A DNA stretch of 60,871 nt from an uncultured Syntrophales bacterium. GTDB taxonomy: Bacteria > Desulfobacterota > Syntrophia > Syntrophales > JACQWR01. Position 1 is the first letter of the stretch; the number at the start of each line of letters is the position of its first letter. This document shows positions 3,647 to 60,871 of the stretch, piece by piece. The position numbers and the translations under genes are program-made. The notes beneath the pieces were generated by a model. It was not told where the DNA came from. It did no database searches and saw only the letters and a program-made list of their open reading frames with translations. Location: the NCBI GenBank assembly GCA_964614365.1, contig CAZTLA010000001.1:1-60871 (forward strand), in the 5' to 3' direction.

Positions 3647-5804
<2,158 letters not shown>

Positions 5805-20791: not shown

Positions 20792-22330
20792 ATGGACCTG
20801 ATAGAGAATTTAAAGCAGAAGAAAAAGGCGATTGTTGACGGCGCCGCGGACGATGTAAAGAAAAAGCTTTTTTATGACAAAGGCATGCTCCCTCCCCGAG
20901 AAAGGATTGAGAAGCTTCTTGATCCGGGGACCTTTTTCGAACTTGATATGCTTGCCACCCACCATTACCGAGACTTTGGGATGGACAAGAAGGAACTCCC
21001 TGCTGAGGGCGTGATAACCGGTTTCGGCCAGATAAACCATCGAAACGTAGCGGTATATGCCCAGGATTTTTCGGCTCTGGGCGGGACTTACGGTGAGATG
21101 CACGGCAGAAAGATATGCGCGCTCATGGACACGGCGGCAGAGGCAGGAGCCCCGGTCATCGGGATCTGCCATTCAGGGGGCTTAAGGCTCCATGAGACCC
21201 TGGGGCCGATGGAGATGTTCGGCCAGCTCTTCAAAAGGAACAGCATTTACTCCGGCGTTGTCCCGCAAATATCCATCATTTTAGGGGTGGTAGCCGGCGG
21301 GCAGGCTTATTCGCCGGGGCTTACGGATTTTATCCTCATGACCAAATCCAGCGCCATCTTCATCGCCGGGCCCGCCTTTGTAAAAGCCCAGACAGGACGG
21401 GAGATCAGCGATGAGGAACTGGGCGGGGCGGTCATGCATGCCAAGGCGAGCGGGCTGGTGGATATTCTCAGAGACACGGAAGAAGATATCTTGCAGGAGG
21501 CCCGCAACCTCGTGGATTTTTTGCCTTTGAACTGCCGCGAAGCGGCCCCCTATCTTCCCAATGGGGATGACCCGGAGAGATGTGAAGAGGTCTTGGATAA
21601 AGTGGCCCCGGAGCAGTCACAAAAGCCTTTTGATATGCACAAGGTGATAAGGCCCGTTTTTGACAATCAGGGATTTTTTGAACTGAAAGCTGATTTTGCC
21701 AGGAACATGATTACCGGTTTTGCCCGCCTTTCCGGCCGCGTGGTCGGTGTTGTTGCCAATCAGTCTAATTACCTCGGAGGAGTGATTGACATCAAGGCCG
21801 CAGAAAAGGGGGCTCGTTTTGTGAGATTCTGTGATTGCTTCAATATTCCGATCATCACTTTTCAAGACTCCCCGGCTTACCTGATCGGCAAGGAGATGGA
21901 GGTAGGCGGAATGATTTACAAAGGCGCCAAGCTTCTTCATGCCTATGCCGAGGCCACTGTCCCGAAAATAACGGTAATTGTCAGGAAAGCTTATGCCGGC
22001 GCCTATATCGCCATGGGCAGCCAGTATATCGGGGCGGACCTGGTCTATGCCTGGCCGGGCGCCGAGATCTCCAGTGTGTCGCCGAAGACGGCAGCGAGCA
22101 TCCTGTTCAGGAAGGAAATAGCCGAGGCAAAGGGTGAAACGGAGATTGAAGCTCTTTATCAGCAGTACTATGCGAACTATGTCCAGCCCTTTAGAGCCGC
22201 ATCGCTGCGTCATATAAATGATATCATCGTACCCAGAGAAACCAGGCCGGTTTTGATAAAATCGCTCAAGATTCTTGAGGGAAAGAAGCAGATCAGGCCG
22301 GAAAGAAAGCATGGGAATATTCCGCTGTAA
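20792..22330 (+). CDS. Acyl-CoA carboxyltransferase (GcdA / methylmalonyl-CoA decarboxylase alpha / PccB-like)
   Basis: 512 aa with a two-domain carboxyl transferase. Contains GMLPPRERIEKLLDPGTFFE, VYAQDFSALGGTYGE, KAAEKGARFVRFCDCFNIPIITFQDSP and RKAYAGAYIAMG. Confidence 0.85.
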   Translation: MDLIENLKQKKKAIVDGAADDVKKKLFYDKGMLPPRERIEKLLDPGTFFELDMLATHHYRDFGMDKKELPAEGVITGFGQINHRNVAVYAQDFSALGGTYGEMHGRKICALMDTAAEAGAPVIGICHSGGLRLHETLGPMEMFGQLFKRNSIYSGVVPQISIILGVVAGGQAYSPGLTDFILMTKSSAIFIAGPAFVKAQTGREISDEELGGAVMHAKASGLVDILRDTEEDILQEARNLVDFLPLNCREAAPYLPNGDDPERCEEVLDKVAPEQSQKPFDMHKVIRPVFDNQGFFELKADFARNMITGFARLSGRVVGVVANQSNYLGGVIDIKAAEKGARFVRFCDCFNIPIITFQDSPAYLIGKEMEVGGMIYKGAKLLHAYAEATVPKITVIVRKAYAGAYIAMGSQYIGADLVYAWPGAEISSVSPKTAASILFRKEIAEAKGETEIEALYQQYYANYVQPFRAASLRHINDIIVPRETRPVLIKSLKILEGKKQIRPERKHGNIPL

Positions 22331-22352
22331 TTATCCCGTTTATCGGGGTTAG
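22331..22352 (+). repeat. 22-nt conserved box TTATCCCGTTTATCGGGGTTAG (copy B), 23 nt upstream of the acyl-CoA dehydrogenase start
   Basis: An identical 22-mer occurs at 29817-29838, and in inverted orientation at 31192-31213. It contains a CCCG-N5-CGGG mini-palindrome. Confidence 0.8.
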
Positions 22353-22375
22353 CATACAAAGAGGAGATATCGGCG

Positions 22376-23539
22376 ATGGATTTTAGCTTTAGTGATGAGA
22401 TTGCAGCCATCCGGGAGATGGCGCGCAAGTTCGCGCAAAATGAAATTCTGCCCCGAGTGGCCGAGGATGAGGAGAATCACGCCTTTCAAAAGGATCTTAT
22501 TAATAAAATGGGGGAATTAGGTTTTTTTGGCTGCCCTATTCCCGAAGAATACGGCGGTTCAAATCTGGGTTTTTTGGCCCATGCCGTGGTGACCGAGGAG
22601 ATTTCCAAGGTCAGCGGTTCGATCCGTGCCGGCTTCAATATGCAGACCATGGGGACTGCGAGAGAAATCTTTCAGTACGGAACCGCAGAGCAGAGGGAGA
22701 AATATATCCGCGGGCTGGTCAGCACCGAGTACCTGGGGTGCATCGGGATTACGGAAGCGAACGCCGGTTCGGATGTCGGAGCGATGAAGACCAAGGCAGT
22801 CAGGAAAGGCGATAGATATATCCTGAACGGATCCAAAAGCTGGATAACCTATGCCCAGGTGGCGGACATAGGGGTTATCTATGCCTACACTGACCCTGCA
22901 AAAAAATATAAAGGGATATCAGGGTTCATTGTGGACATGCATTCCAAAGGAGTCAGTTCCGGACCTACGGCCACAAAAATGGGGTGGAAGGCTTGCCCCA
23001 CTGGAGAGCTTTTTTTTGATGACGTTGATGTTCCTGCCGAAAACCTGTTAGGCGGCGTGGAGGAAAAAGGTTTTGAATGTGTCATGTCAGGGCTTAACAA
23101 CACCAGATTAACGGCTGCTGCCGGGGCCGTTGGCGTAAGCCAGGGACTGATCGACGAGGCGGTTAAATATGCCCGGGAACGAGAGCAGTTCGGCGCAGCC
23201 ATCGGGCAATTTCAGATGGTTCAGGAAGAGTTGGCCCGGATGATCGTGGAAACAGAGGCGGCCCGTTTGATGGTCTATCGGTGCGCTGCGCAAAAAGATG
23301 CCGGGAACCTGGGCAATGTTTTAGAGACGGTCATGGCCAAGTACTATTCATGCGACGTGGCGTCGAGGGTCGCGGATGGGGCGCTCAGGATCTTGGGGGC
23401 CTATGGTTATTCCAGTGAGTATCCGGTGGAAAGATTGTTCCGCGACGCAAAGCTCTACCAAATACTGGAAGGATCCGCCAATATCGGCAAGATGATCATT
23501 GCCACCGATGCCCTTGGATACCGGAAAGCCAACCGATGA
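22376..23539 (+). CDS. Acyl-CoA dehydrogenase (short-chain or glutaryl-CoA dehydrogenase-like)
   Basis: 387 aa. Contains GITEANAGSDVGAMKTKA, ERLFRDAKLYQILEGSANI (catalytic Glu in the EG motif), and a typical ACAD N-terminus. Confidence 0.85.
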   Translation: MDFSFSDEIAAIREMARKFAQNEILPRVAEDEENHAFQKDLINKMGELGFFGCPIPEEYGGSNLGFLAHAVVTEEISKVSGSIRAGFNMQTMGTAREIFQYGTAEQREKYIRGLVSTEYLGCIGITEANAGSDVGAMKTKAVRKGDRYILNGSKSWITYAQVADIGVIYAYTDPAKKYKGISGFIVDMHSKGVSSGPTATKMGWKACPTGELFFDDVDVPAENLLGGVEEKGFECVMSGLNNTRLTAAAGAVGVSQGLIDEAVKYAREREQFGAAIGQFQMVQEELARMIVETEAARLMVYRCAAQKDAGNLGNVLETVMAKYYSCDVASRVADGALRILGAYGYSSEYPVERLFRDAKLYQILEGSANIGKMIIATDALGYRKANR

Positions 23540-24753
23540 GCGATAGCCGGCAAAGCGTCTTTCCGCTTGAGGGGATCAGGGTGCTGGATCTTACCAGGCT
23601 CATTCCCGGCGCCTTTTGTACGGCTATTCTCGGAGATGCCGGAGCCGAGATCATTAAAGTGGAGGATACGGAGACAGGCGATTACGAGCGCGAGATACAC
23701 CCTTTTATTGGATCAATGGCCTCCCGCTTTCTTATCTTAAATCGTAATAAAAAGAGCATTTCTTTGAATTTGAAAAAAAAAGCGGGGAAGCAGATCTTTC
23801 TGAAATTGGCGCAGTCAGCCGACGTTATCGTGGAAGGATTTCGCCCTGGGGCAATGAAAAAACTGGGGCTGGATTATGAATCGCTCCGGGAAATCAATCA
23901 GAGGCTTGTCTATTGCTCCATATCCAGTTTTGGTCAGGATGGGCCATACAGAGATGTGGTGGCCCATGATATTAATATCTTGGGCCTGGCCGGTTTTTTT
24001 CATGTCACGGGAGTCAAGGGAGGCGCGCCGGTTATTCCCGGCATCCAGATCGCAGATTCCGTGGCCGGGATGAACGCGGCGCTGGCAATCCTTTTTGCCA
24101 TTATGGCCAGGGAAAAGACCGGAAAGGGGCAATTGTTAGACATCTCCATGTTTGATGGGGTTATCTCGTGGATGTTCGATGCGGCAAGATCCGCATTTGC
24201 CGGAGAGAGTATCCCCGAAAAAGGGAATGGCAGGTTATACGGAGGCCTTCCCAATTACAATCTTTACGAGACGAAGGACGGCAAGCATGTTGCTGTTGGC
24301 TCATTGGAGACGAAGTTCAAGAACGCATTGCTGAAGAAACTCGGAAGGGATGATCTCATCGAAGAAGAAGGAGGGAGAACTACCCCGGACATCAGGGAAT
24401 CAGACGTGGAGTTGCATGCTATTTTCCGTCAGGCTTTTTTGACCAAGACGAGAAATGAATGGATGGAAGAGCTGGGCGAATTGAATATTTGCGTAAGTCC
24501 GGTAAACACCATGGAAGAGGCAATCTCCCACCCTCAGGCAGCTTATCGTAAGATGGTGATGGGTGTAGACCATCCATCTGCCGGAAGAATAAAACAGATC
24601 GGGTCCCCGTTGAAAATGTCAACTATTTCATTTGATGTAAGTCGGCTGCCGGCGCCAAGACTCGGAGAGCATACCCGAGAGATGCTGGGCTCTTTAGGAT
24701 ATGACGGGGGTGAGATTGACGAATTGGCAAGAGAGGATATTATCCGGGTATAA
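23536..24753 (+). CDS. Family III CoA-transferase (CaiB/BaiF/Frc type)
   Basis: Contains GIRVLDLTRLIPGAFCTAILGDAGAEIIKVE, VIVEGFRPGAMKKLGLDYE and NYNLYETKDG. Confidence 0.88.
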   Translation: MSDSRQSVFPLEGIRVLDLTRLIPGAFCTAILGDAGAEIIKVEDTETGDYEREIHPFIGSMASRFLILNRNKKSISLNLKKKAGKQIFLKLAQSADVIVEGFRPGAMKKLGLDYESLREINQRLVYCSISSFGQDGPYRDVVAHDINILGLAGFFHVTGVKGGAPVIPGIQIADSVAGMNAALAILFAIMAREKTGKGQLLDISMFDGVISWMFDAARSAFAGESIPEKGNGRLYGGLPNYNLYETKDGKHVAVGSLETKFKNALLKKLGRDDLIEEEGGRTTPDIRESDVELHAIFRQAFLTKTRNEWMEELGELNICVSPVNTMEEAISHPQAAYRKMVMGVDHPSAGRIKQIGSPLKMSTISFDVSRLPAPRLGEHTREMLGSLGYDGGEIDELAREDIIRV

Positions 24754-24771
24754 CGGCAGAGGGTGCGTACA

Positions 24772-25650
24772 ATGATGAAAATAACGAAAGATTTGGAAGT
24801 GAAAATTATTGGTGTTGGCAAGGTGGGCGGCAGCATCGTTCAGGCCTTTGCCCAATCAGGATTCAAAATCCAGGGAATGGATATCGATCAAGGAAATATC
24901 GACAAGGGCTTTAAAAGTATTGAACAGAATCTGGAGAGATTGATTGCCAAGGGGAAAATACAGGCCGAGGAAAAGGATGTAGTGCTTTCCCGGATTGACC
25001 TGACAACAGATTTTGACGGGCTGAGGAAGGCCGATATAGTGATAGAAGCGGTCTTTGAAAATATGGACGTTAAGAAGGAGACTTTTCGAAAGATTGATAA
25101 AATGGTGGGGTCTCAAGATGCTCTTCTTTTGACGAACACATCCTCTCTCTCTGTATCAGAGATAGCCTCTGTAACCAGCCGGCCGGAAAAGGTGGCCGGG
25201 ATGCACTTTTTTAACCCTGTGCCAGTGATGAAGCTTGTGGAAGTGGTCCGGGGAGCCTTGTCTTCAGACGAGACAGTCGAACAGGTAAAAGCCCTCGCGA
25301 TATTGATGAATAAAACCCCGATCGTTTCCGCCGACAGTCCGGGATTCATCGTAAACCGCATGTTGAACGCATTGACCGTAGAGGCCGCGCGTATTGTGGA
25401 GGAAGGCGTCGGTACGGTGGAAGATGTGGATACAGGGGCCAAGCTGGGCTTGGGGCATCCCATGGGACCGTTTGCGCTTTTCGACTACCTCAGTGCCATA
25501 CATTTACTTCAACACGTTACCGATTATATGGCTGTGGAGTTAGGGGAAAGATTCCGTTTGCCTGTCTGGGTGAAGAACCTGGTGCGGGCCGGCAAGGTGG
25601 GCCGAGCCGCCGGAAGAGGATTCTACGACTATAGGGAGAAAGGGAAATAA
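24772..25650 (+). CDS. 3-hydroxyacyl-CoA dehydrogenase, NAD-binding
   Basis: Rossmann IGVGKVGGSI, then ...EAVFENMDVKKE, TNTSSLS, HFFNPVP and PGFIVNR. Start alternatives are GTG 24763, ATG 24772 and ATG 24775. Confidence 0.85.
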   Translation: MMKITKDLEVKIIGVGKVGGSIVQAFAQSGFKIQGMDIDQGNIDKGFKSIEQNLERLIAKGKIQAEEKDVVLSRIDLTTDFDGLRKADIVIEAVFENMDVKKETFRKIDKMVGSQDALLLTNTSSLSVSEIASVTSRPEKVAGMHFFNPVPVMKLVEVVRGALSSDETVEQVKALAILMNKTPIVSADSPGFIVNRMLNALTVEAARIVEEGVGTVEDVDTGAKLGLGHPMGPFALFDYLSAIHLLQHVTDYMAVELGERFRLPVWVKNLVRAGKVGRAAGRGFYDYREKGK

Positions 25651-25653
25651 GAA

Positions 25654-26436
25654 TTGCGAGAAAGCGAAATCATTTTCACGAAAGAAAAAGGAATTGCCAC
25701 GATTGTCTTTAACCGGCTCGATGTTCACAATGCTTTGAATAACGCCATGGTCAAAGGACTCGCCAACGCTCTGGATGATATTGAGAATGATGCGGGGATC
25801 AGAGCCCTTATTCTTACCGGCGCCGGTGAGAAAGCATTTGTCTCCGGATCAGACATCAGGGAACTCAGCGAGAGGACCTCTCTTACGGGTATTGAAAATT
25901 CGCTGAAAAGGCAGGAGTTGCTCAATCGAATTGAGGGGCTGCCAATACCTTCCATAGCGGCGATTAACGGTTATGCCTTTGGAGTGGGCTGCGAAATCGC
26001 TTTGGCCTGTACGGTCAGGATTGCCTCAGAGAACGCAAGATTAGGGCAATTAGAGATCAATCTCGGAATCATCCCGGGTGCAGGCGGCACCCAGAGACTT
26101 CCTCGGCTGATTGGCAAGGCCGGCGCGGCGGAGCTTATTCTGACGGGTAAAATCATTCAGGCTGAGGAGGCCTGCCGGATGGGGCTTGTCAACAAAGTGG
26201 TCCCCCATGAAAAGTTGAGGGAGGAATGCCTTCAGTGGGCCGGGACTTTCTCTGAAAAAAGCCCCATCGCCATGAAATATGCGCTTCGGGCAATCAACCA
26301 AGGTCTTGAGGTTGATTTAGCATCAGGATTGAAGATTGAGAGCCTGTGCCTGGGAGCATGTCTTGGTTCGGAAGACAGTAAGGAAGGGCTGAATGCCTTT
26401 TTAGAAAAAAGAAAACCAAAATTTAAAGGTTTATAA
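25654..26436 (+). CDS. Enoyl-CoA hydratase (crotonase family)
   Basis: Contains FNRLDVHNAL, FVSGSDIRE, INGYAFGVGCEIALAC and a C-terminal EGLNAFLEKRKPKF. The start is TTG. Confidence 0.88.
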   Translation: MRESEIIFTKEKGIATIVFNRLDVHNALNNAMVKGLANALDDIENDAGIRALILTGAGEKAFVSGSDIRELSERTSLTGIENSLKRQELLNRIEGLPIPSIAAINGYAFGVGCEIALACTVRIASENARLGQLEINLGIIPGAGGTQRLPRLIGKAGAAELILTGKIIQAEEACRMGLVNKVVPHEKLREECLQWAGTFSEKSPIAMKYALRAINQGLEVDLASGLKIESLCLGACLGSEDSKEGLNAFLEKRKPKFKGL

Positions 26437-26468
26437 TCTATTATATAACTCAGCATGAGGAGGGCGAA

Positions 26469-27335
26469 ATGGCAATTAATAAGGTTTTGGTCGTTGGCTT
26501 AGGACTGATGGGAAGGGGAATTCTTCAGGTTTGCGCCCAAGCGGGATTCGAATCATACGGCTACGATGTTTCTGAAGATGCCGTGAAAAATGCCACGGGT
26601 TATATCGGAAAAAGCCTGGAGAAAAGAGTCAAAAAAGGAACCCTGAGCGAAGAAGAGAAGGCCAAGATCTTGGCGAATATTAAGACCGTTTCGGATCTAA
26701 AGGATGCCACGGACGTGGATCTGGCCATAGAGGCGGTTTTTGAGGATCTCAAAGTAAAACAGGATCTGTTCAGGAAGTTGGATGAGGTCTTGCAGCCCAA
26801 CGCAATTTTGGCGTCAAATACCTCCGGGTTGCCGGCAACGCCACTGGCTTCCGTTACGAAGAGGCCGGACAAGTTCATGATTATCCACTTTCATCAGCCG
26901 CCTACGGTTATGAGACTTATAGAATTAGTAAAGGCGATCCAGACCAGCGATGAGACCGCTGCCGCTGCGATGGAATTCTGCAAGGCAATTGACAAAGATC
27001 CGATTCAAATCAATGTTGACTGCCCTGGATTCTTGACGAACAGAACCATGATCCCGTTGTTAAATGAAGTGATTTATTGTCTCTATGAGGGGGTATCTAC
27101 CAAAGAAGATATTGATCTGGCCTACAAATCAGGTTTTAATTGGCCTATGGGCCCGGTCACCTTGTGTGATTTCATCGGGCTGGATACTCTTCTTCATATC
27201 ATGGAGGACTTGCACAAACGGCGCGGGGGGGACAAATATATACCCTGTCCGCTTCTGAGCAATATGGTAGCTGCCGGGTATTTGGGTCACAAATCCGGCA
27301 AGGGGTTTTACGATTACTCCAAACTTAAAGGTTAA
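26469..27335 (+). CDS. 3-hydroxybutyryl-CoA dehydrogenase-like
   Basis: Contains VVGLGLMGRGI, EAVFEDLKVKQ, SNTSGL, HFHQPP, PGFLTNR and a C-terminal GHKSGKGFYDY. Confidence 0.88.
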   Translation: MAINKVLVVGLGLMGRGILQVCAQAGFESYGYDVSEDAVKNATGYIGKSLEKRVKKGTLSEEEKAKILANIKTVSDLKDATDVDLAIEAVFEDLKVKQDLFRKLDEVLQPNAILASNTSGLPATPLASVTKRPDKFMIIHFHQPPTVMRLIELVKAIQTSDETAAAAMEFCKAIDKDPIQINVDCPGFLTNRTMIPLLNEVIYCLYEGVSTKEDIDLAYKSGFNWPMGPVTLCDFIGLDTLLHIMEDLHKRRGGDKYIPCPLLSNMVAAGYLGHKSGKGFYDYSKLKG

Positions 27336-27351
27336 GCAAAGGAGTATGGTC

Positions 27352-28530
27352 ATGGAGGAGGTGGTCATCTGCAGTGCGGTGAGGACACCCATCGGTAATT
27401 TTCTGGGACAGCTTTCCCGTTTCAGCGCCGTGGACTTGGGCGCCATGGTCATCAACGAAGCAATCAACAGGGCAGGCATTGCCAAGCAAGATATTGATGA
27501 GGTCATCATGGGAAATGTACTTCCCTGCGGCCTCGGTCAGAATCCCTGTCGACAGGCAATGATCAAAGCCGGTGACATAAGCTTTGATGTGGGAGCGCTA
27601 ACCATCAACAAGGTTTGTGGATCCGGTCTTAAGGCCGTGATGCTCCTTACCCAAGCCATTCAGACAGGGGATGCCGAGGCGGGCGTGGCCGGCGGCATGG
27701 AATCCATGAGCCAGGCGCCCTATTATCTCGACAGGGCGAGATCAGGCTATCGAATGGGTAACGGGAATATTGTTGATCATATGGTTCACGATGGGCTGTG
27801 GGATGTAGTAAACGACTGCCACATGGGCTATACGGCTGAACTGGTTTCTGAAAAATATGGAATTTCCAGGGAGGATATGGACAGATGGGCGTATGAGTCC
27901 AATACCAAGGCGCTGGACTCGATAAAGACCGGGAAATTCAAAGAGGAAATACTGCCTGTTTCAGTTCCTCAAAGAAAGGCAGATCCGATTCTGATAGATA
28001 AGGATGAAGGCCCCGGTATTCCTGATCTGGTGAAAATGGCCAAGCTCCAGCCGGCCTTCAAGAAAGACGGTGTAGTAACGGCTGGGAACGCTTCCAAGAT
28101 CAGTGACGGTGCATCGGCCCTGGTGGTCATGTCGGAGAAAAAGGCCGGGAAATTAGGGGCGCCGATTATCGCTAAGGTGATTGCTCAAGCCTCTGCCGGT
28201 TTAGGCTTAGAACAGGTGCTCATGTCGCCCATTAAGGCGATTCCTCAAGTCCTGAAAAAAGCAGCCCTGAAAATAGAGGATATTGACTTGTTCGAGATCA
28301 ATGAAGCATTCGCTGCTTCCACGGTGGGGGTTATCAGAGAGCTGGGAATAAATCCTTCAAACGTGAACGTCCACGGCGGAGCAGTTGCCTTGGGACATCC
28401 CATCGGGGCAAGCGGAGCCAGGGTCCTTACCACGCTGCTTTACGCCATGAAACAGCGAGATGCCAAAAGAGGTCTTGCCACACTCTGCCTGGGGGGCGGT
28501 GAGGCGGTAGCCCTGGTCGTGGAGATGTAA
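27352..28530 (+). CDS. Acetyl-CoA acetyltransferase (thiolase II-like)
   Basis: Contains VICSAVRTPIG, INKVCGSGLKAV, NVHGGAVALGHPIGASGAR and CLGGGEAVA. I preferred the ATG at 27352 because its SD (AAGGAG) spacing is better. ATG 27346 is the alternative. Confidence 0.9.
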   Translation: MEEVVICSAVRTPIGNFLGQLSRFSAVDLGAMVINEAINRAGIAKQDIDEVIMGNVLPCGLGQNPCRQAMIKAGDISFDVGALTINKVCGSGLKAVMLLTQAIQTGDAEAGVAGGMESMSQAPYYLDRARSGYRMGNGNIVDHMVHDGLWDVVNDCHMGYTAELVSEKYGISREDMDRWAYESNTKALDSIKTGKFKEEILPVSVPQRKADPILIDKDEGPGIPDLVKMAKLQPAFKKDGVVTAGNASKISDGASALVVMSEKKAGKLGAPIIAKVIAQASAGLGLEQVLMSPIKAIPQVLKKAALKIEDIDLFEINEAFAASTVGVIRELGINPSNVNVHGGAVALGHPIGASGARVLTTLLYAMKQRDAKRGLATLCLGGGEAVALVVEM

Positions 28531-28594
28531 TGAATATAGTGTTGCGTTGCAATTGAAGATATTGAAAGCAATGTATAGAAAGGGGATCACCTGA

Positions 28595-29758
28595 ATGGTT
28601 AGTAAGAAGAAATCACTTGAAACCTTCGCAACGATCGAAAGGATCAATCAACAGCTCCCGGGTATCGACGAGATCAGGGAATGGAAAGCCCGAGGAGGGA
28701 AGGTGGTGGGGTGGTTGTGCGATTATGTTCCCGAGGAATTGATTCATGCGGCAGGGTTGCTGCCGGTCCGGGTGACCGGGCTTCCGAAAGAAATATCATT
28801 AGATGACGCCAACGCCTATCTTTACACCACAACCTGTTCCTTTGTCCGAACCGTTTTTCAACTCGCCTTTGAGAAGAAGTATGATTTTCTGGATGGGTTT
28901 GTGGTGGCCTCCAACTGCGATCACGCACGGAGATTATTTGACGTTTGGGACCGGTACATTCCCACACCGTATCGGTATATCCTCTCCGTGCCTCAAACAA
29001 AATTGCCCCAGGCGCAAAAATTTTATGAGCGAGAACTGGAGGATTTTAAAAAGAGCCTGGAAGCCCATTTTAAAGTCAGCATCCCCGAGGCCAAGATCGG
29101 GGAGTCGATCAAACTTTTTAATCAAACCCGCAGAGGTCTCCGCACATTGAACGAGCTGAGAAAACAGGATTCTCCCAAGATCATGGGGGCTGAGGTCTCC
29201 AAGATCATGAACGCCTGCGAAAAACTGCCTAAAGAGCAGTTTAATCCCCTGCTCGAATCGATTCTTCAGGAGTTGAAAAAGACCGACCGGGAGAACAAGA
29301 CCAACATCCGCCTGATGGTCTCCGGGAGTGTCCTCAATAATCCAAATTATATCGAGTTTATAGAAGATCAGGGGTGCAGTGTGGTCATCGACGATCTTTG
29401 CACCGGGGTCCGTTACTGGTGGGATGAGGTCCCGGAAGATAAACCGCCGATGGAGGCCTTGTCTCATCGTTATCTGACCCGGTTCCCCTGCGCCAGGATG
29501 ACCCCCGGGGAAGATCGCTTTAAACAGGTGGCGGCGCTGGCTAAAGAATACCGGGTGGATGGAGTTATTCAGGAGATGGTGCGCTACTGTACGCCTACCG
29601 CCTGGGAAAGACCGTGGCTTCGAAAGGGCATTGAAGATGAGAATATTCCGGTATTGCAGTTGGAAATAATATATGGAGCGGCCGGGACGGGGCAATTGAA
29701 GATCAGAATCCAGGCCTTCATCGAGATGCTGGGGATGCAGTCAGAAGAGTTTTTTTAG
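28595..29758 (+). CDS. Benzoyl-CoA reductase (class I) / 2-hydroxyacyl-CoA dehydratase family subunit, BzdN/BcrC-like
   Basis: 387 aa. Contains GGKVVGWLCDYVPEELIHAAGLLPVRV, FVVASNCDHARR and DDLCTGVRYW, as in BcrC/BadD/HgdB-type subunits. Confidence 0.8.
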   Translation: MVSKKKSLETFATIERINQQLPGIDEIREWKARGGKVVGWLCDYVPEELIHAAGLLPVRVTGLPKEISLDDANAYLYTTTCSFVRTVFQLAFEKKYDFLDGFVVASNCDHARRLFDVWDRYIPTPYRYILSVPQTKLPQAQKFYERELEDFKKSLEAHFKVSIPEAKIGESIKLFNQTRRGLRTLNELRKQDSPKIMGAEVSKIMNACEKLPKEQFNPLLESILQELKKTDRENKTNIRLMVSGSVLNNPNYIEFIEDQGCSVVIDDLCTGVRYWWDEVPEDKPPMEALSHRYLTRFPCARMTPGEDRFKQVAALAKEYRVDGVIQEMVRYCTPTAWERPWLRKGIEDENIPVLQLEIIYGAAGTGQLKIRIQAFIEMLGMQSEEFF

Positions 29759-29760
29759 TA

Positions 29761-29838
29761 AGTTAGAAATTATGGTTCTTTCGTGTTTCCGGCAAGAAAT
29801 AATTTCGTAAACTTACTTATCCCGTTTATCGGGGTTAG
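29761..29838 (+). repeat. ~78-nt intergenic repeat, copy A: imperfect AT-rich hairpin plus the 22-nt box
   Basis: AGTTAGAAATTAT...CCGGCAAGAAATAATTTCGTAAACTTACTTATCCCGTTTATCGGGGTTAG. By eye it is about 85% identical to the reverse complement of 31192-31267. The box ends 24 nt before the ATG at 29863. Confidence 0.8.
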
Positions 29839-29862
29839 TATAAGATTCCGGGGAGATAGGAC

Positions 29863-31185
29863 ATGAAACCGAAGATTAAGGATATCGAAATCAATCTCGA
29901 GGATTTCAATTCGATGATTGCCTTGTTGGAATCCATTCTTGCGCACCGGAGAAAAAAGCCGACGACCAAGAGCGCCGAACTGTTTTATGCGCATCAGATC
30001 AACTATTACCGGGAGATAAGGGACGCTAAAAAGAACGGGAAGATTTTCGTGCTCCATTCTGCCTTTACTCCCGTGGAAATCCTTTATGCCTTTGATGTTG
30101 TTCCGGCCCACGCCTCTTTCTTAGTGGGCGCCATTGCTCAACTCACCAAGAAGCAGGGGGAATACATGGATGCTTCATCCCGGTTTGGATATCCCTGGGA
30201 GGTATGCCAGGGGCATCGGCCCGTAGTTGGCGGAGCCCTTTTGAAGAAAGCCCCCAAGCCGGACCTCTGCATATCCACTCAGATAGGCTGCACGAATGCA
30301 GCCTCCAGTACCATGGGCCTTGCACGGGCCTACGATGTCCCGATTCATTATATGGACATGAGCTATGGAGGGAAAAGAGCGGTAGATTTTGCCTACTATA
30401 TCGAAAACTTAAGAGAACTGATCAAATTTCTGGAGGGATTCACGGGTAAGATATTTGATTGGGACAGATTGTGTGAGATCGTGGACATCGAGCGGCAGAT
30501 AGCAGAGGTCAACCTCGAGATTATGGAGTTAAGAAAAGCCGTCCCCTCTCCTGTTCGGCATCGCGGGTTTACTCAACAGTACAGTGTGGATATGTTCACG
30601 CCGGGGATTCCGGAGGCATTAAATTTCTTCAAGTGTGTTCGGGATGAGATCAAGGAAAATGTCGAGACCAAGAGGGGGCCGATCGATACCCCGGAACGTT
30701 ATCGAGTCCTTTCGATCTTGATGCCGCCGAATTTTGCCCATAAACTACTGGACTGGATGGAAGAGGAACACGGAGTTTTCTCCGTGGGAGAACCTCACAT
30801 GGCCTACTGGCCGCCCAATCTCAAACTCGACCCGAACCATCCCTTGGAAAGCCTGGCCAATAAGTACTATAACCGGCCAATGTTGGCGCAGTTGATCTGC
30901 CCGGCCATAGACTGCCTCATTCCGGATACCCTAGCGCTTGCCAGGGAGTACAAAGCCGATGGGGCCATCTTCTATGCCAACGTGACCTGTCATACAAGCC
31001 CGGTTCTGATCCGGTCGCTCAAGGATTCACTGCTCGAAACTGCGGGGATTCCCACGTTGGTCCTCGATATGGACGTGGCGGATCCCAACTATACCTCACA
31101 GGAAGAGATGCAAGAAAGAATTGAGACTTTCCTGGATATCATGGACACGTATAAAGAAAAAAGGAAAATCGAGGGAAGAATTTAA
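29863..31185 (+). CDS. Benzoyl-CoA reductase (class I) / 2-hydroxyacyl-CoA dehydratase family subunit, BzdO/BcrB-like
   Basis: 440 aa. Its length and position match the bzdNOPQ order. Contains FVLHSAFTPVEILYAFDVVP, ISTQIGCTNAAS and ANVTCHTSP. Confidence 0.75.
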   Translation: MKPKIKDIEINLEDFNSMIALLESILAHRRKKPTTKSAELFYAHQINYYREIRDAKKNGKIFVLHSAFTPVEILYAFDVVPAHASFLVGAIAQLTKKQGEYMDASSRFGYPWEVCQGHRPVVGGALLKKAPKPDLCISTQIGCTNAASSTMGLARAYDVPIHYMDMSYGGKRAVDFAYYIENLRELIKFLEGFTGKIFDWDRLCEIVDIERQIAEVNLEIMELRKAVPSPVRHRGFTQQYSVDMFTPGIPEALNFFKCVRDEIKENVETKRGPIDTPERYRVLSILMPPNFAHKLLDWMEEEHGVFSVGEPHMAYWPPNLKLDPNHPLESLANKYYNRPMLAQLICPAIDCLIPDTLALAREYKADGAIFYANVTCHTSPVLIRSLKDSLLETAGIPTLVLDMDVADPNYTSQEEMQERIETFLDIMDTYKEKRKIEGRI

Positions 31186-31191
31186 TATCCC

Positions 31192-31267
31192 CTAACCCCG
31201 ATAAACGGGATAAGTGCGTTAACGAAATTATTTTTTGCCGGAAAAGTGCAAAAAATAATTTCTCACT
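31192..31267 (-). repeat. ~76-nt intergenic repeat, copy C (inverted relative to copy A), with a perfect 15-bp AT-rich hairpin
   Basis: CTAACCCCGATAAACGGGATAA at 31192-31213 is the reverse complement of the 22-nt box. The stem arms are GAAATTATTTTTTGC (31224-31238) and GCAAAAAATAATTTC (31248-31262), with a 9-nt loop. Confidence 0.8.
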
Positions 31268-31289
31268 TACGAAAGAGGAAGGGAATGAG

Positions 31290-32075
31290 ATGGCTGTCGC
31301 AGGAATGGATGTCGGGCATCGCAGCATCAAAATGGTGATTTTGGAGGATGGGGAAATTCTCTCCCGGAAGATTATAACTACCGCCGGAGAAACGAACGCC
31401 CTGGCAAAACAGATTTTCGACCAGACAGCAGAGGAGATTGATCTGGATCCTTCCCGCCTCAAATTTATTACGACTACCGGCGGCATGGGGAAGAACGTCG
31501 CCTTCGCCAACCTTTATCGAACCGTGCCCTATTGCCTGGCGAAGGGGGTTTACGCCCTCTTCCCGAAGGCGAGGACGATCATCGATATGGGAGGGGAAAC
31601 CTGCAATGTGATCAAACTGAACGAGAGGGGAGAGATTGAAGACACCCAGAGTAACGATAAGTGTGCCGCCGGAACGGGGATCTTTTTTGAGGCCATGGCC
31701 AAGCTTCTCGGCACATCGCTGGATCACATGGGGAGACTGGCAACCCAGGGAGACATCCAGTTTGAGATCAGTTCGATGTGTGTCGTGTTTGCCGAACAGG
31801 AGGTGATCTCCCACTGTCATGAGAATCCGGATATTTCCGCAGAGGCCTTGGCGGCCGGAATCCACCTCTCCATTGCCGAACGCGTGGCAGGGCTTGCGAA
31901 ACGTTTGGGGATCACGGAAGAAATTGTCCTAACCGGCGGGGTTGCCAAAAACAGGGGTTTTGTCAAATTCCTCTCGCAGAGGATTCATGCTCTTCCGAAG
32001 GTCCCCGAAGACCCTCAAATCATAGCGGCTTACGGAGCTGCGTTGATCAGTCAAGAGCGGATAAAAACTCTATAA
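31290..32075 (+). CDS. BadF/BadG/BcrA/BcrD/HgdC-family ATPase (electron-activating subunit), copy 1
   Basis: 261 aa with an acetate/sugar-kinase fold. Contains GMDVGHRSIK, DMGGE, NDKCAAGTG and SSMCVVFAEQE (the two cluster-bridging Cys), and LTGGVAKN. Confidence 0.85.
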   Translation: MAVAGMDVGHRSIKMVILEDGEILSRKIITTAGETNALAKQIFDQTAEEIDLDPSRLKFITTTGGMGKNVAFANLYRTVPYCLAKGVYALFPKARTIIDMGGETCNVIKLNERGEIEDTQSNDKCAAGTGIFFEAMAKLLGTSLDHMGRLATQGDIQFEISSMCVVFAEQEVISHCHENPDISAEALAAGIHLSIAERVAGLAKRLGITEEIVLTGGVAKNRGFVKFLSQRIHALPKVPEDPQIIAAYGAALISQERIKTL

Positions 32076-32101
32076 TTCCAGAGGGACAAAAAGGGGCGGT
32101 T

Positions 32102-32890
32102 ATGTATTTTGCAGGAATTGACCTTGGCTCGAGGAAATCAAAGATTGCTCTATTTAAAGAGGATGAATTGATCAAGGAATATGTAGGTGAAACAGGACTC
32201 GGAGCGGCCAGAACGGCAGAGATGATTATGAGCCTCGCCCTTGCAGACACAGGCTTAAGGATCGAGGACTTCCAGTCCATTGTGGCCACGGGATATGGTC
32301 GGGTGGTCGTCCCTTTTGCTCATAGCCATGTGAGCGATATCCTTGCTCATGCCATGGGAGCCTTTTGGTATTTCCCTTCCGCTCGCACGGTTCTCGATCT
32401 CGGGGGACAGGATTGTAAAGCCATCAATGTAGATGAAAGGGGAAGGCTGACCGGATTCGTAATGAATGATAAATGCGCGTCGGGAAACGGCCGATTTTTA
32501 GAGACCATGGCCGATCACTTGGAAATCCCGATTGAAAAGACCGGAGATATTTCCCTCGAAGCACAGAAACCCATAATATTCAGCACGATCTGTGCGGTCT
32601 TTGCCAACTCCGAGGCCATGGCCATGGTCCGGAAGGGAATTCCCCTGGCGGATATCCTGGCCGGGATTCACCATATCATTGCCGTTCAGTGTGAAAAGAT
32701 GCTGGAAATGCTTTCGCTGGAAGAGGATCTGGTGATGTCGGGCGGGGTTTCAAAAAATATCGGCGTGGTAAATATGGTTGCCAAGAGGCTGGGGATAACA
32801 CCCAAGATCCCTGCCGACCCGCAGATGGTTGGGGCCGTGGGCGCTGCTGTCGTTGCCCGCAAGAAATATCATGCAGGAAAATGTATGTAA
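32102..32890 (+). CDS. BadF/BadG/BcrA/BcrD/HgdC-family ATPase, copy 2
   Basis: 262 aa. Contains GIDLGSRKSK, DLGGQD, NDKCASGNGRFLE, STICAVFANSE and MSGGVSKN. Confidence 0.85.
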   Translation: MYFAGIDLGSRKSKIALFKEDELIKEYVGETGLGAARTAEMIMSLALADTGLRIEDFQSIVATGYGRVVVPFAHSHVSDILAHAMGAFWYFPSARTVLDLGGQDCKAINVDERGRLTGFVMNDKCASGNGRFLETMADHLEIPIEKTGDISLEAQKPIIFSTICAVFANSEAMAMVRKGIPLADILAGIHHIIAVQCEKMLEMLSLEEDLVMSGGVSKNIGVVNMVAKRLGITPKIPADPQMVGAVGAAVVARKKYHAGKCM

Positions 32891-32950
32891 GGAGTGAGGG
32901 GGCGATCCTACGGAAATACCTCGAGTAAATTAGAGAAGGAGATAGCGGAT

Positions 32951-34210
32951 ATGGAAGGAAGAAAAAATCTGATCGAAAACTGCAAAGTTCTTGACTTCAG
33001 CACTGAATTGGGATTTCTCTGCGGGAAGATCCTGGGCGATTTGGGCGCGGACGTCATAAAGGTGGAACCTCCCGGAGGTGACCCCGCCCGAAAGATGGGA
33101 CCTTTTTATCAGGATATTCCCCACCCTGAGAAAAGCCTCTACTGGCTCGCCTACAACAATAATAAAAGAAGCATGACCCTGAATATTGAAACGGCAGACG
33201 GCCGTGAAATACTGAAGAAACTCCTCATGTCGACGGATATTATTATTGAATCATTTCCGCCGGGATATATGGAGCAACTTGGGTTGGGGTTTTCGGAACT
33301 CAGCCGGATGACAAAAGAAAAAATTATCATGACCTCCATCAGCCCTTTTGGCCAGGAAGGGCCCTATAAAAACTACAAAGCCACGGACCTCGGAATTATG
33401 GCCATGAGCGGCTGTATGTCTCTTTTAGGAGAGCCTGACCGTCCTCCCCTGCGCACCAGTATTCCCGTCTCCTATATGTGGACGGGTTCTTATGCGGCAC
33501 TGGGAACGCTGATGGCCTACTTCCACTGTCGAACGACGGGCAGGGGACAACATGTGGATGTTTCGGCCCAGGCAAGCGCAGCCTGGTCGGCGGATACGGC
33601 TCCTTTATACTGGGAAGCCGACGGCACGCTGACCAAACGGGTCGGCAACGCCGTTCCCGGCCGTAGTATTCACGGTGCTGCCATGAAAGCAGCCTATCCC
33701 TGTAAGGATGGGTACATCTGCTGGCTCATCTACGGAGCAAGGGCCGGAGGGATAACCAATAAGGAGACCATGAAATGGATGGAAGAAAAGGGGATAACAT
33801 CTGACTGGATAAAAGCCCAGGATTGGGACAAATTCGATCCCGCTCTGGCAACGCAGGAAGATTTTAATCATATCATGGAGCCTGTTAGTCGTTTGCTTCA
33901 AGGGCTAACCAAAGCGGAATTTCTCGAAGAAGCGGTGAAGAGAAGGATCATGGGTTACCCCGTGTCCGATGCCAAGGATATCATAGAAAGCCCCCAACTC
34001 CGCGCCAGAGAAGTATGGCAAAATATCGAACATCCGGAGCTTTCCGCTGAGATTACCTATCCCGGACCTTGGGCAAAATTTTCCGAATCTTCCTGCGGAA
34101 TTTCTCGGCGAGCTCCTCTCATCGGCGAGCATAACGATGAAATTTACACCCAGGGACTGGGGATATCCGCGGAGGAATTAACGGTACTAAAACAGGCAGG
34201 AGTGATCTGA
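32951..34210 (+). CDS. Family III CoA-transferase, first of an adjacent pair
   Basis: Contains KVLDFSTELGFLCGKILGDLGADVIKVEPPGGD and IIIESFPPGYMEQLGLGF. I placed the start at ATG 32951 (MEGRKNL...). Confidence 0.85.
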   Translation: MEGRKNLIENCKVLDFSTELGFLCGKILGDLGADVIKVEPPGGDPARKMGPFYQDIPHPEKSLYWLAYNNNKRSMTLNIETADGREILKKLLMSTDIIIESFPPGYMEQLGLGFSELSRMTKEKIIMTSISPFGQEGPYKNYKATDLGIMAMSGCMSLLGEPDRPPLRTSIPVSYMWTGSYAALGTLMAYFHCRTTGRGQHVDVSAQASAAWSADTAPLYWEADGTLTKRVGNAVPGRSIHGAAMKAAYPCKDGYICWLIYGARAGGITNKETMKWMEEKGITSDWIKAQDWDKFDPALATQEDFNHIMEPVSRLLQGLTKAEFLEEAVKRRIMGYPVSDAKDIIESPQLRAREVWQNIEHPELSAEITYPGPWAKFSESSCGISRRAPLIGEHNDEIYTQGLGISAEELTVLKQAGVI

Positions 34211-39805: not shown

Positions 39806-39972
39806 ATTCCATTTCTAATTCTTTAGTGCATGAATAATCCATTGCCAAGCAACTATCGAACGGATACGATTTCGATCATTTTCCATATCGCGCAATGCAT
39901 CCGCAAGGTGATCTTCGAGAGCATCAAGGCTGATGTGCGGATAGTATATCACTTATGAATTAGAAATGGAAT
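39806..39972. repeat. 16-bp perfect inverted repeat (ATTCCATTTCTAATTC / GAATTAGAAATGGAAT) flanking a 45-codon minus-strand ORF in the convergent intergenic region
   Basis: The arms lie at 39806-39821 and 39957-39972. The enclosed ORF (39815-39952, GTG start) reads VIYYPHISLDALEDHLADALRDMENDRNRIRSIVAWQWIIHALKN. I recognise no family for it. Confidence 0.4.
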
Positions 39973-58719: not shown

Positions 58720-59733
58720 TTACTTGAGATACGGCAACATCTTTTCATAGATGGGTGGGCCAAACTTCGGGGCCCTCTTAACAATCCAATCTTTCACGGC
58801 GGGTCCGGAGCGGGATTCGTTGAGCTTTGCGACATCCTTATTGGATAGATGGATAATCTTTAATCCGTGTTTTTCCTGAGCCTCTTTTAAACGGGCTTTA
58901 TCCATCTCATCATAGTATTTGTTGGCATCTACTTCTGTCGCAATCATCACCTCTTTAATCATGGTTTTAAGGTTTTCCGGAATTGAATTCCATTTTTTCT
59001 CCCCCACATATATTCCGCCATAGGCGGCATAAACAGGGGGGGAAATGACATATTTCATTACTTCATACTCTTTATATTCAATAAGAGATATGACATTCCG
59101 AATGGCGCCGTCCACGACCCCTCTTTGCAAACCCTCATAGGTTTCAGCGCTGGCAATTTTGACCACGGAAGCGCCTAATTCTCCAAAAAGCACATCGCCC
59201 AGTCCACCCATGCCCCGGAGCTTTAAGCCTCTCACATCGTCTAATTTGGAGACCGGCTTGCTGGTCATGATATAAAAGGGCATTCCAATCCATAAATTTC
59301 CCAGAAAAGCCACCTTGCCTCGTTCGAGATAGGCCTGGGCATAGGTTTCCCATATCCCACTTTCCCGAAAAGCTTTTAATTCATATTTATGCTTGGCCAA
59401 ACCCGGAATCGAACCTTCCGGCACAATGCCGGTATAATAGTCCTGGCAGCTATGAGTCATATCGATAGTCTCTGTGGAAATAGCCTTTAACTGGTCGAAG
59501 ACAGAAACTACTTCAGGACCCCCCAGGAGTTTGATCTCTAACTCTCCTTTCGCCCGATCATTAACCCGTTTGATAAACTCTTTATAATAATCATTCCCCA
59601 CATGCGTTACAGGCCAAGCAGTAATGGCTTTGATCACAATCTTTGGCGCCGCCTCACTTTCCTTCGGTGGAAATCCCATCAAGAATAACCCCACCCCGAC
59701 AAAAACTGCCGATAATAAAATTGTCTTTTTCAT
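58720..59733 (-). CDS. dctP: TRAP transporter substrate-binding protein, DctP family (copy 1)
   Basis: 337 aa. Has a signal peptide. Contains EIKLLGGPEVV and GLKLRGMGGLGDV, with the overall DctP pattern. Confidence 0.85.
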   Translation of the reverse strand: MKKTILLSAVFVGVGLFLMGFPPKESEAAPKIVIKAITAWPVTHVGNDYYKEFIKRVNDRAKGELEIKLLGGPEVVSVFDQLKAISTETIDMTHSCQDYYTGIVPEGSIPGLAKHKYELKAFRESGIWETYAQAYLERGKVAFLGNLWIGMPFYIMTSKPVSKLDDVRGLKLRGMGGLGDVLFGELGASVVKIASAETYEGLQRGVVDGAIRNVISLIEYKEYEVMKYVISPPVYAAYGGIYVGEKKWNSIPENLKTMIKEVMIATEVDANKYYDEMDKARLKEAQEKHGLKIIHLSNKDVAKLNESRSGPAVKDWIVKRAPKFGPPIYEKMLPYLK

Positions 59734-59777
59734 AATTTCCCCCCTCCATTTAAAATTTCCTTACTCCCTCTCTATAT

Positions 59778-60797: not shown

Positions 60798-60871
60798 ACT
60801 CCCCCCCCTTTTGATTTTTTCGTATTGTCAAAACTTTTTTGTCTCTTAGGAAAAAATACCTTTACTTTTAG

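Follow-up and report, generated by a model that had tools for sequence, protein, structure and literature searches.

The three repeat sequences that we analysed in the window (the whole stretch of Syntrophales DNA, 60,871 nt long) are very probably local members of an interspersed family whose unit, about 86 nt long, contains no gene and is present in many copies; two of them are full units and one has lost its hairpin. The kind is best read as a trans-mobilised, TTAG-directed mosaic repeat resembling REP, MITE and PATE elements. Because units are dispersed among genes of unrelated function, both in this genome and in many of its relatives from sediment, we regard the three sequences as ordinary interspersed insertions and not as a switch of the operons that carry them.

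Repeat copies and host genes in the window

We searched the window for the 22-mer TTATCCCGTTTATCGGGGTTAG. The results showed exactly three matches, at 22331-22352 (+), 29817-29838 (+) and 31192-31213 (-), while shuffled sequence gave 0 matches; the one at 22331-22352, which a previous sequence-only reading had reported as a third occurrence, is exact. The other two belong to copies A and C, each of about 84 nt, which are inverted and bracket a bzdO-like gene. The features at the two loci are as follows.

20792-22330, + strand: carboxyl-transferase gene, putative glutaconyl-CoA decarboxylase alpha
22331-22352, + strand: copy B, box only
22376-23539, + strand: acyl-CoA dehydrogenase gene; close relatives are named non-decarboxylating glutaryl-CoA dehydrogenase in source annotations
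28595-29758, + strand: HGD-D family gene, bzdN/BcrB-C-like subunit (PF06050, 2.7e-91)
29755-29838, + strand: copy A, full unit, sense to the operon (nhmmer E=2.9e-20; CM 91.7 bits)
29756-29758: TAG of the left TTAG of copy A, also the stop of the HGD-D gene that precedes it
29758-29764 with 29810-29816: outer stem of copy A, GTAAGTT with AACTTAC; the inner stem is imperfect
29817-29838: box of copy A, ending in TTAG
29863-31185, + strand: HGD-D family gene, the "bzdO-like" cistron between A and C (PF06050)
31191-31273, - strand: copy C, full unit, antisense to the operon (nhmmer E=6.1e-25; CM 100.4 bits)
31192-31213: box of copy C, then G (31191); the left TTAG has decayed to TTCG
31224-31238 with 31248-31262: perfect 15-bp inner stem of copy C, GAAATTATTTTTTGC with GCAAAAAATAATTTC; the outer stem is of the AACGCAC type
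31290-32075, + strand: BcrAD_BadFG ATPase subunit gene, downstream of copy C (PF01869, 6.6e-44)

Several points of the sequence-only reading were borne out here: the perfect 15-bp hairpin of copy C (31224-31238 with 31248-31262), the enclosure of a single coding sequence (29863-31185) by the inverted copies, and the distance from box to ATG, which is 24 nt in copy A (ATG 29863) and 23 nt in copy B (ATG 22376). This similar spacing is better explained by insertion right behind a TTAG that coincides with the upstream stop codon or adjoins it, with a short operon spacer left downstream. Copy B lies in the spacer that separates the carboxyl-transferase gene from the acyl-CoA dehydrogenase gene (together 20792-23539).

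The unit is spread across genomes and between unrelated genes

The search of this genome and related genomes that had been proposed gave many copies. In the window's genome (G000), a Syntrophales MAG, nhmmer found at least 14 full or near-full copies plus box-only or truncated ones, and the relatives carrying the element have 10-28 copies each. BLAST matches, partial ones included, numbered 13 in G000, 22 in a genome of the same genus (G001), 19 in G002, 26 in G004, 17 in G005 and 28 in G038; most other genomes of the order had no BLAST match. The element was present in 16 of the 301 sampled genomes of the phylum and in 74 of 120 loci from a box scan, which came from Syntrophales, Desulfobulbales, Desulfobacterales and Geobacter/Desulfuromonadales MAGs.

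The setting of 84 copies was then tabulated. The genes on the two sides run in the same direction for 56 of them (31 copies sense, 25 antisense), diverge for 15 and converge for 13, and the neighbours are functionally unrelated (prs, the ribosomal L25 gene, valS, hsdM, cheA, tctA). Among the 31 sense copies, the upstream stop codon is the left TAG in 14, and in 15 the right end is followed within 16 nt by a start codon. Orientation runs -, +, -, + along a 229-kb contig of G001 (C27) and is also mixed on contigs C15 and C25. Tested against local GC skew, which mostly tracks gene strand, orientation gave 48:36 (p=0.23) in draft MAGs without a mapped replication origin. The sequence-only reading had named beforehand a genome-wide scatter as the outcome that would speak against a special role, and a genome-wide distribution beside unrelated neighbours is largely what these data show.

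We found no match to the element in plasmid and phage collections. Twelve viral-contig hits to a box 16-mer were rejected as chance, since none of them matches the element model. A cmscan of 22000-32000 against Rfam (E<=10) returned four chance-level hits and no family; the sole Rfam hit touching any copy was ylbH over copy B, at 20.5 bits against a gathering score of 50. A full-text literature search for the box sequence found no paper, and the box is absent from the papers on Geobacter "multicopy nucleotide sequences" and from the supplements of one of them. The family itself seems not to have been described before.

Orthologous spacers without the unit carry TTAG at the junction

We compared the three occupied spacers with orthologous ones. 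The empty sites for A and C were taken from metagenome contigs, the gene cluster being accessory in close relatives, among which no orthologue of the bzdO-like gene was found. In the L207 operon (88% amino-acid identity), the N-O spacer is 40 nt long, starts right after TTAG and lacks copy A; in L209 and L210, the O-P spacers of 41 nt lack copy C. Because orthologous operons keep the gene order without the element, the bzdO-like gene is judged to be a native member of the N-O-P-Q operon.

The four orthologous spacers for copy B (L223, L224, L225 and L227) are likewise empty, reading TAA-TTAG-... with no 18-nt box, and the sites matching copy B have a short operon spacer of 23 nt downstream. 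The spacer with copy B has 18 bases more than these 27-29-nt orthologous spacers, reading TAA-TTA[TCCCGTTTATCGGGGTTA]G against TAA-TTAG-AATA.... Copy B is best read as a once-full unit whose hairpin was probably deleted between the TTA repeats at the hairpin base.

Between G001 and G000, approximately nine sites could be compared: one is shared, three are clean empty sites with TTAG, and 4-5 contain remnants. The shared orthologous copy is about 90% identical in the two genomes. The non-coding DNA beside it is much less alike, as judged by eye and not computed. The evidence for mobility consists of such insertion and deletion differences between species, and they show that the unit has been gained and lost in intergenic DNA many times, the junction always being at a pre-existing TTAG. 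A MITE-like nature, one of several possibilities offered by the sequence-only reading, is the one that these observations support: copies are genome-wide, occur in all spacer classes and both orientations, and are missing from orthologous operons.

A conserved box and a hairpin kept by compensatory changes

The gene-less unit of about 86 nt consists of TTAG, a long hairpin, the conserved box CTTATCCCGTTTATCGGGG and TTAG(G). The hairpin has a 7-bp outer stem and a 15-bp inner stem, and its structure is conserved while its sequence varies; the box folds as a short GC hairpin. Part of the near-invariance of the box is an artefact of collecting the loci with a box 16-mer scan. We aligned 85 distinct copies and carried out the covariation analysis that had been suggested. 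The results showed that compensatory changes maintain the hairpin: 19 of 29 pairs were changed on both sides (123 cells), which 0 of 500 shuffles reached, and paired cells amounted to 90%, compared with 40-49% in slid controls. Inner-stem G-T and A-C mismatches were equal (33 vs 31), indicating that no single transcribed strand is favoured.

The left TTAG is conserved at 94-100%, its G being invariant, and the right G reads A in 24% of copies, 20 copies having the form TTAG...TTAA. The left and right TTAG do not co-vary, and tandem units have one (C/T)TAG in common. TTA stands at either end of the unit and also where hairpin and box meet (CAC-TTA-TCCCG). Some copies consist of the box or of the hairpin alone, and mosaics of the form hairpinA-hairpinB-box'-box occur.

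Retention of the copies as mRNA stability or processing elements that set cistron ratios, like E. coli REP/BIME, is an explanation compatible with a mobile origin, and we consider it unlikely. The consensus is predicted to fold as a stable RNA hairpin in both orientations (-29.6 and -27.8 kcal/mol), roughly two copies in three lie between cistrons, compensatory changes keep the hairpin intact, and the approximately 90% identity of the copy common to the two congeners, set against its diverged flank, hints at selection or gene conversion. Against these points stand the high turnover, with one shared site among about nine in congeners and remnants and deletions elsewhere, the lack of preference in orientation relative to transcription (31:25), and the equal mismatch counts in the inner stem. 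The element may in itself affect mRNA stability.

The modular build also bears on whether the unit is two things, namely a palindromic MITE, with GTAAGTTAGAAATT-type terminal repeats as hairpin arms and a TTA duplication, and a REP-like box already in place that serves as its target. The three positions of TTA and the box-only, hairpin-only and mosaic forms would agree with this, but we hold it to be improbable. Box-only copies retain right-arm remnants of varied length (GCAC, AACGCAC or GTGAAGGTAC), which look like deletions with varied endpoints; two hairpin-only copies, L231 and L232, have no TTA on the right side; copy B, a box-only form, is inserted material when compared with its orthologues; and no insertion sequence was found with the hairpin arms as its ends.

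Copies A and C are independent insertions

The sequence-only reading had aligned A with the reverse complement of C with few mismatches. The similarity does span the whole unit, but the copies are only about 79% identical over the aligned unit and immediate flanks, no closer than other copies, the mean pairwise identity among genome copies being 84%. Their outer-stem variants differ as well, AACTTAC in A and AACGCAC in C. Because of this 79% identity and the unlike outer-stem types, A and C are taken to be two independent insertions of different subfamilies.

It has to be weighed whether the pair acts as a unit, either through a long-range RNA duplex by which the bzdO-like cistron is looped out or excised, or as DNA on which 29839-31190 could be inverted. 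A repeat search gave inverted arms of 53 nt (29786-29838 vs 31192-31244) with 92% complementarity, and the predicted A:C duplex reaches -95.9 kcal/mol compared with -24.6 and -26.0 for the local folds. We nevertheless find such a role very improbable, as the subfamilies differ and the likeness is no greater than between random copy pairs, each copy also folds locally during transcription, both are missing from orthologous operons, nothing indicates selection for the pair, the chance of two among about 15 copies falling within 1.5 kb is about 0.1, and inversion would disrupt the operon for a four-subunit enzyme.

Least credible of all is the proposal that the box is an operator or RNA-binding site coordinating the acyl-CoA dehydrogenase and bzd-like operons: three exact 22-mers within 9 kb (chance of 3 of 15 copies clustering so, about 0.01) and near-equal start-codon spacing at two copies speak for it, but the same box occurs genome-wide beside prs, valS, hsdM, cheA and tctA, in both orientations and in convergent and divergent spacers, copy C is directed away from any gene start, and orthologous operons elsewhere lack the box and therefore function without it.

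Search for a mobilising enzyme

We examined the genomes for candidate enzymes. No Y1_Tnp (PF01797) was found in G001 with its 22 copies. Among 41 genomes, 34 have Y1, whether they carry the element or not, and its presence does not follow that of the element; none of the Y1 genes of G000 is flanked by the element. The TnpB domain PF07282 was found in 0 of 6 element-rich genomes, whereas control genomes responded. Clustering of all ORFs within 3 kb of copies revealed no recurrent neighbour family. There was no full-length element with these ends, no left and right ends separated by a gene were found, and a search for orphan left ends gave only deletion derivatives.

Comparison with known repeat families and proposed mechanism

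The element resembles PATEs and gene-less IS200/IS605 derivatives in being small, gene-less and multi-copy, without terminal inverted repeats and without a target duplication co-varying with the flank. As in PATEs, insertion is 3' of a fixed tetranucleotide, here TTAG, which the empty orthologous sites carry at the junction; the 3' end of the element recreates the target, so that tandem units share one site; and hairpins lie at or near both ends, although the two hairpins of the element are dissimilar. It differs in that no tnpA/tnpB partner with matching ends was found. IS200/IS605 elements target the lagging strand and usually show a strong replication-strand bias, whereas the orientation of this element alternates on one contig.

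With REP/BIME and REPIN-RAYT systems of Proteobacteria, it shares extragenic, multi-copy palindromes that are often intercistronic and occur in both orientations, mosaic and tandem arrangements, mRNA hairpins as a likely side effect, and, presumably, mobilisation in trans. Its head is TTAG-TAAG and not GTAG, the unit is larger (about 86 nt) with a separate conserved box, and copies number tens and not hundreds. In contrast to REPIN-RAYT, the element does not flank the RAYT-like Y1 genes of the genome, and the distribution of Y1 does not follow that of the element.

Correia elements of Neisseria, RUP and BOX of Streptococcus pneumoniae, and ERIC are likewise short gene-less intergenic repeats that form long mRNA hairpins and vary in presence between relatives, and the modular build of hairpin A, hairpin B, box' and box recalls boxA/B/C. 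No sequence similarity to these families was seen. In Correia and RUP, the inverted repeats are terminal and a DDE transposase makes the TA duplication, whereas the inverted arms of this element are internal and its right end is an unpaired box. A MITE with terminal inverted repeats (Correia, RUP, IS5- or IS630-derived) was rejected, as the box has no inverted counterpart at the left and the TTAGs do not co-vary.

The folded-hairpin style of the site is also seen in integron attC sites and gene-less mini-cassettes, and the right end G|TTAGG resembles R' G|TTRRRY. We rejected an attC site: a complementary R'' (RYYYAAC) is lacking, and the box has CTTATCC as its left arm in place of CCTAAC. The left junction is preceded by T or A and not by G, and copies are single, dispersed and in both orientations within ordinary operons, unlike the co-oriented arrays of attC.

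The TTAG at which the unit inserts was there before, and in many cases it holds the stop of the gene upstream. As the unit has TTAG(G) at its own end, this stop is kept, and the 3' AGG is often at Shine-Dalgarno distance from the next start; insertions are therefore tolerated inside tight operons in either orientation. In the favoured explanation, a TTAG-directed mobile repeat, an enzyme recognising the conserved box and TTAG would mobilise the unit in trans, the substrate being a folded single strand or a hairpin. The best available analogy is HUH/Y1-type chemistry, as in IS200/IS605 and REP-RAYT, a tentative one that may not hold. Machinery new to such elements, neither Y1/TnpB nor DDE/TIR, is a rather doubtful prospect; it would read the 19-nt box and a structure-only hairpin and act seamlessly at TTAG, with the stop and ribosome-binding context restored, and if true, the element would be a stealth intercistronic parasite across several Desulfobacterota orders. 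At the present locus, A and C are insertions into the N-O and O-P spacers of the benzoyl-CoA-reductase-like operon, and B is a decayed one downstream of the carboxyl-transferase gene and upstream of the acyl-CoA dehydrogenase gene. Should copies influence expression, as exonuclease barriers or RNase III sites, this would be incidental and not a regulatory connection by design.

Significance for the organism and the family

The result disposes of an attractive but mistaken regulatory account: no shared operator connects the bzd-like and glutaryl-CoA operons, which simply took up copies of a genomic parasite. Repeat copies break assemblies, and reading a single locus invites mistaking the element for a riboswitch, an operator or an attC-like site. 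A covariance model of the element (R1) would let annotators mask copies. In many uncultured Syntrophales, Desulfobulbales, Desulfobacterales and Geobacter-type genomes, members of the family mark the spacers between genes, and their insertion exactly at TTAG stop codons, with the stop and Shine-Dalgarno context kept, is an example of small elements living inside operons.

Copies in the window

The window carries two full units and one box-only copy of a gene-less hairpin element of about 86 nt, whose conserved part, the box, lies at its right end. The copies and the genes beside them are as follows:

20792-23539: carboxyl-transferase gene directly 5' of an acyl-CoA dehydrogenase gene
22331-22352 (+): copy B, box only
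28595-34210: four-subunit HGD-D/BcrAD-type cluster
29755-29838 (+): copy A, full unit
29863-31185: bzdO-like gene (O) of the benzoyl-CoA-reductase-like (bzd-like) N-O-P-Q operon
31191-31273 (-): copy C, full unit

The sequence-only reading had claimed three occurrences of the 22-mer TTATCCCGTTTATCGGGGTTAG, and exactly three were found in the window, at 22331 (+), 29817 (+) and 31192 (-), versus none in shuffled sequence. Its inverted pair was recovered by a repeat search of the window (29786-29838 and 31192-31244, 53 nt, 92% complementarity), and reading of the sequence confirmed the perfect 15-bp hairpin of copy C at 31224-31262. The box-to-ATG gaps of 24 nt (ATG 29863) and 23 nt (ATG 22376) also held, as did the single CDS, 29863-31185, enclosed by the inverted copies. 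The window further contains a 23-nt inverted repeat (39806-39828 and 39950-39972, 91% complementary, 121 nt apart), unrelated to the hairpin element, at a junction of plus- and minus-strand gene blocks. A 72-nt direct repeat (59674-59745 and 60738-60809, 90% identical) covers the beginnings of two paralogous genes in tandem and is part of a 1.06-kb duplication (D4, D6).

A genome-wide family with patchy spread

A search tolerant of mismatches, together with an nhmmer profile, identified 14 full or nearly full copies, plus the box-only copy, in the window's own genome, G000 (3.2 Mb, 298 contigs, 84% complete). The genome-wide search proposed earlier thus revealed a family that is not confined to this locus. 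The copy count is probably a lower bound, because the assembly may break at element copies. For L052 and L053, two copies in the congeneric genome G001, the left flank matches one G000 contig and the right flank another (ends of C292/C194 and C143/C188), in the case of L052 near contig ends.

BLAST against 40 relatives, with partial matches included, gave 22 matches in G001 and 19, 26, 17 and 28 in the relatives G002, G004, G005 and G038, while most genomes of the order had none. A covariance model (R1), run over a sample of 301 genomes from the whole phylum, detected the element in 16, which cluster in a few families. The exact box 16-mer, scanned across one genome per prokaryote species, matched 120 loci, and the profile confirmed the element in 74 of them. 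Element-bearing loci were found in Syntrophales (Smithella, Syntrophaceae, Syntrophus) and also in Desulfobulbaceae, Desulfocapsaceae, Desulfobacteraceae, Desulfonema, Geobacter and Desulfuromonadales MAGs. The other 16-mer matches, in unrelated taxa and viral contigs, were attributed to chance, a few hundred being expected in ~600 Gb by our own arithmetic.

Structure of the element

The consensus is TTAG - GTAAGT(T/G) - A - GAAATTATTTTCTGC - loop on the left and, after the loop, GCAGAAAATAATTTC - GT(T/A/G) - AAC(G/T)(C/T)AC - TTATCCCGTTTATCGGGG - TTAG(G). We specified a structure with a 7-bp outer stem, a 15-bp inner stem and a 7-bp box hairpin, and examined it in an alignment (A1) of 85 distinct full copies. 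This covariation check, also proposed by the sequence-only reading, showed changes on both sides in 19 of 29 pairs (123 cells); 90% of cells were paired, versus 40-49% with slid partners, and none of 500 shuffles attained any of the measures. The outer stem varies by lineage (GTAAGTT/AACTTAC, GTACCTT/AAGGTAC, GTGCCTT/AAGGCAC, GTCCCTT/AAGGGAC), and the box is conserved in sequence, in part because the box itself was used for scanning. The inner stem has equal numbers of G-T and A-C mismatches (33 and 31), which favours neither strand as the one that folds.

The hairpin loop can be as short as 3 nt or as long as about 40 nt, and the long-loop variant holds an extra GC hairpin. This hairpin, CTACCCCTCAAGGGGGTACTGAAAAGAG, defines a subfamily (L071, L075, L103, L140, L149 and, in G038, L213-L215 and L221) and may be a second mini-element nested in the loop. 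On contig L209, a 140-nt long-loop variant (4764-4903) lies between Usp and TetR genes, and that contig's bzd-like operon is without the element. Bigger mosaics exist (e.g. hairpinA-hairpinB-box'-box), tandem units have one (C/T)TAG in common, and deletion derivatives without part of the hairpin or box are common.

Insertion at TTAG and turnover

L207, the nearest operon recovered from metagenome assemblies, encodes a bzdO-like protein 88% identical to that of the window. Its 40-nt N-O spacer begins directly after the ...TTAG stop of the N gene; in the window, the corresponding TTAG precedes copy A's 80-nt body. The O-P spacers of L209 and L210 are 41 nt long and lack the element. That of L207 holds an unrelated 115-nt insert (2592-2706) whose end, ...TTTACTTTAACGAGAGGAAGG, faintly resembles a left-end remnant of the element; this insert may represent a different repeat family or a copy that has decayed.

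In four orthologous carboxyl-transferase/acyl-CoA dehydrogenase spacers (27-29 nt), the copy B site reads TAA-TTAG-AATA..., and the window has TAA-TTA[TCCCGTTTATCGGGGTTA]G-CATA..., 18 nt longer. The simplest history would be that a full unit entered at TTAG and its hairpin was then lost between the TTA repeats at the hairpin base. Box-only copies elsewhere retain variable lengths of the right hairpin arm, which is more readily explained by deletions with differing endpoints than by a separate box module. The dehydrogenase's close homologues bear the source name non-decarboxylating glutaryl-CoA dehydrogenase, and we infer that the gene encodes this enzyme and its upstream partner the glutaconyl-CoA decarboxylase alpha subunit. 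Together the two would be the combination known from syntrophic or strictly anaerobic benzoate degraders.

Nine G001 copies could be placed at orthologous G000 sites. One site was occupied in both genomes, three were cleanly empty (TTAG, then unrelated sequence), and four or five held remnants (either the 18 nt at the start of the unit or its right half in decayed form), indicating that turnover is fast when measured against species divergence. Close relatives have no orthologue of the bzd-like cluster. No bzdO-like orthologue was found in eight related genomes, so the cluster is accessory in the lineage; paralogues among the eight occur only in G003 (29-32% identical).

Placement relative to genes

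We classified 84 copies by intergenic class with a simple ORF-based gene call. Co-directional spacers held 56 copies, without orientation bias (31 sense, 25 antisense), divergent spacers 15 and convergent spacers 13, which is probably close to the usual share of each class. Among the 31 sense copies, in 14 the preceding gene stops at the TAG of the left TTAG, and in 15 a start codon follows no more than 16 nt after the right end, which puts the element's terminal AGG at the Shine-Dalgarno position. A unit ending in TTAG(G) and inserted after a stop-codon TTAG would keep the stop and place AGG upstream of the next start, which would explain the tolerance of copies in tight operons. Insertion of this kind, at a TTAG in or beside the stop with a short spacer left downstream, is also the better explanation of the 24- and 23-nt box-to-ATG spacing. 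In empty sites matching copy B, the spacer left downstream of the unit is 23 nt; that of copy A has since diverged from its orthologue.

Alternative readings and mobilisation

The MITE-like reading survives as an interspersed, non-autonomous insertion; membership of TIR-MITEs, as of REP-RAYT and attC, fails on a defining feature. On a common transcript, an A:C duplex has a predicted energy of -95.9 kcal/mol versus -24.6 and -26.0 for the local folds, making a long-range stem or RNase III substrate physically possible. Any such stem would be an accident of two insertions. Copies A and C share 79% identity across the aligned unit and immediate flanks, within the range of random G000 pairs (77-91%, mean 84%), and their outer-stem variants differ; they thus do not form a matched pair but are separate insertions. 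Clustering of three of the 15 copies within 9 kb is unusual (simulated p ~0.01), whereas that of two within 1.5 kb is not (p ~0.1); pairs of copies a few kb apart also occur at several other loci, suggesting either local hopping or accessory DNA that is permissive. A device that would link or loop the bzd-like and acyl-CoA dehydrogenase operons is not supported. Nor is a shared operator, since the neighbours of G000 copies (prs, the ribosomal L25 gene, valS, hsdM, cheA, tctA, an HdrD-like gene, molybdenum hydroxylase, a response regulator) do not look like a regulon.

The element resembles IS200/IS605 in its fixed tetranucleotide junction (TTAG), its lack of terminal inverted repeats, the hairpins adjoining both ends, the one site in common between tandem units, and a right end whose variation does not track that of the left end, so that there is no true target duplication. 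Membership was not supported. No TnpB domain was found in any of the six element-rich genomes, although control genomes responded. Y1_Tnp was present in 34 of 41 genomes irrespective of the element and was not found in G001 despite its 22 copies, and the flanks of the G000 Y1 genes held no element. We found no recurrent gene beside copies and, by BLAST of the 40 relatives and an orphan-end search, no full-length element. Orientation alternates along single contigs and does not correspond to GC skew. Our reading is that the element is non-autonomous, hairpin-dependent, TTAG-directed and mobilised in trans; by analogy, HUH-type chemistry is possibly, and quite tentatively, the best comparison for its mobilisation.

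No Rfam family matches the element, in agreement with the earlier remark that no known motif was recognised; a full-text literature search found its box sequence in no paper, and plasmid and phage collections gave no match. The element adds a new family to the familiar group of bacterial interspersed hairpin repeats. Its family-level interest is modest and lies in the missing transposase, the stop-codon junction and the wide but patchy spread across Desulfobacterota.
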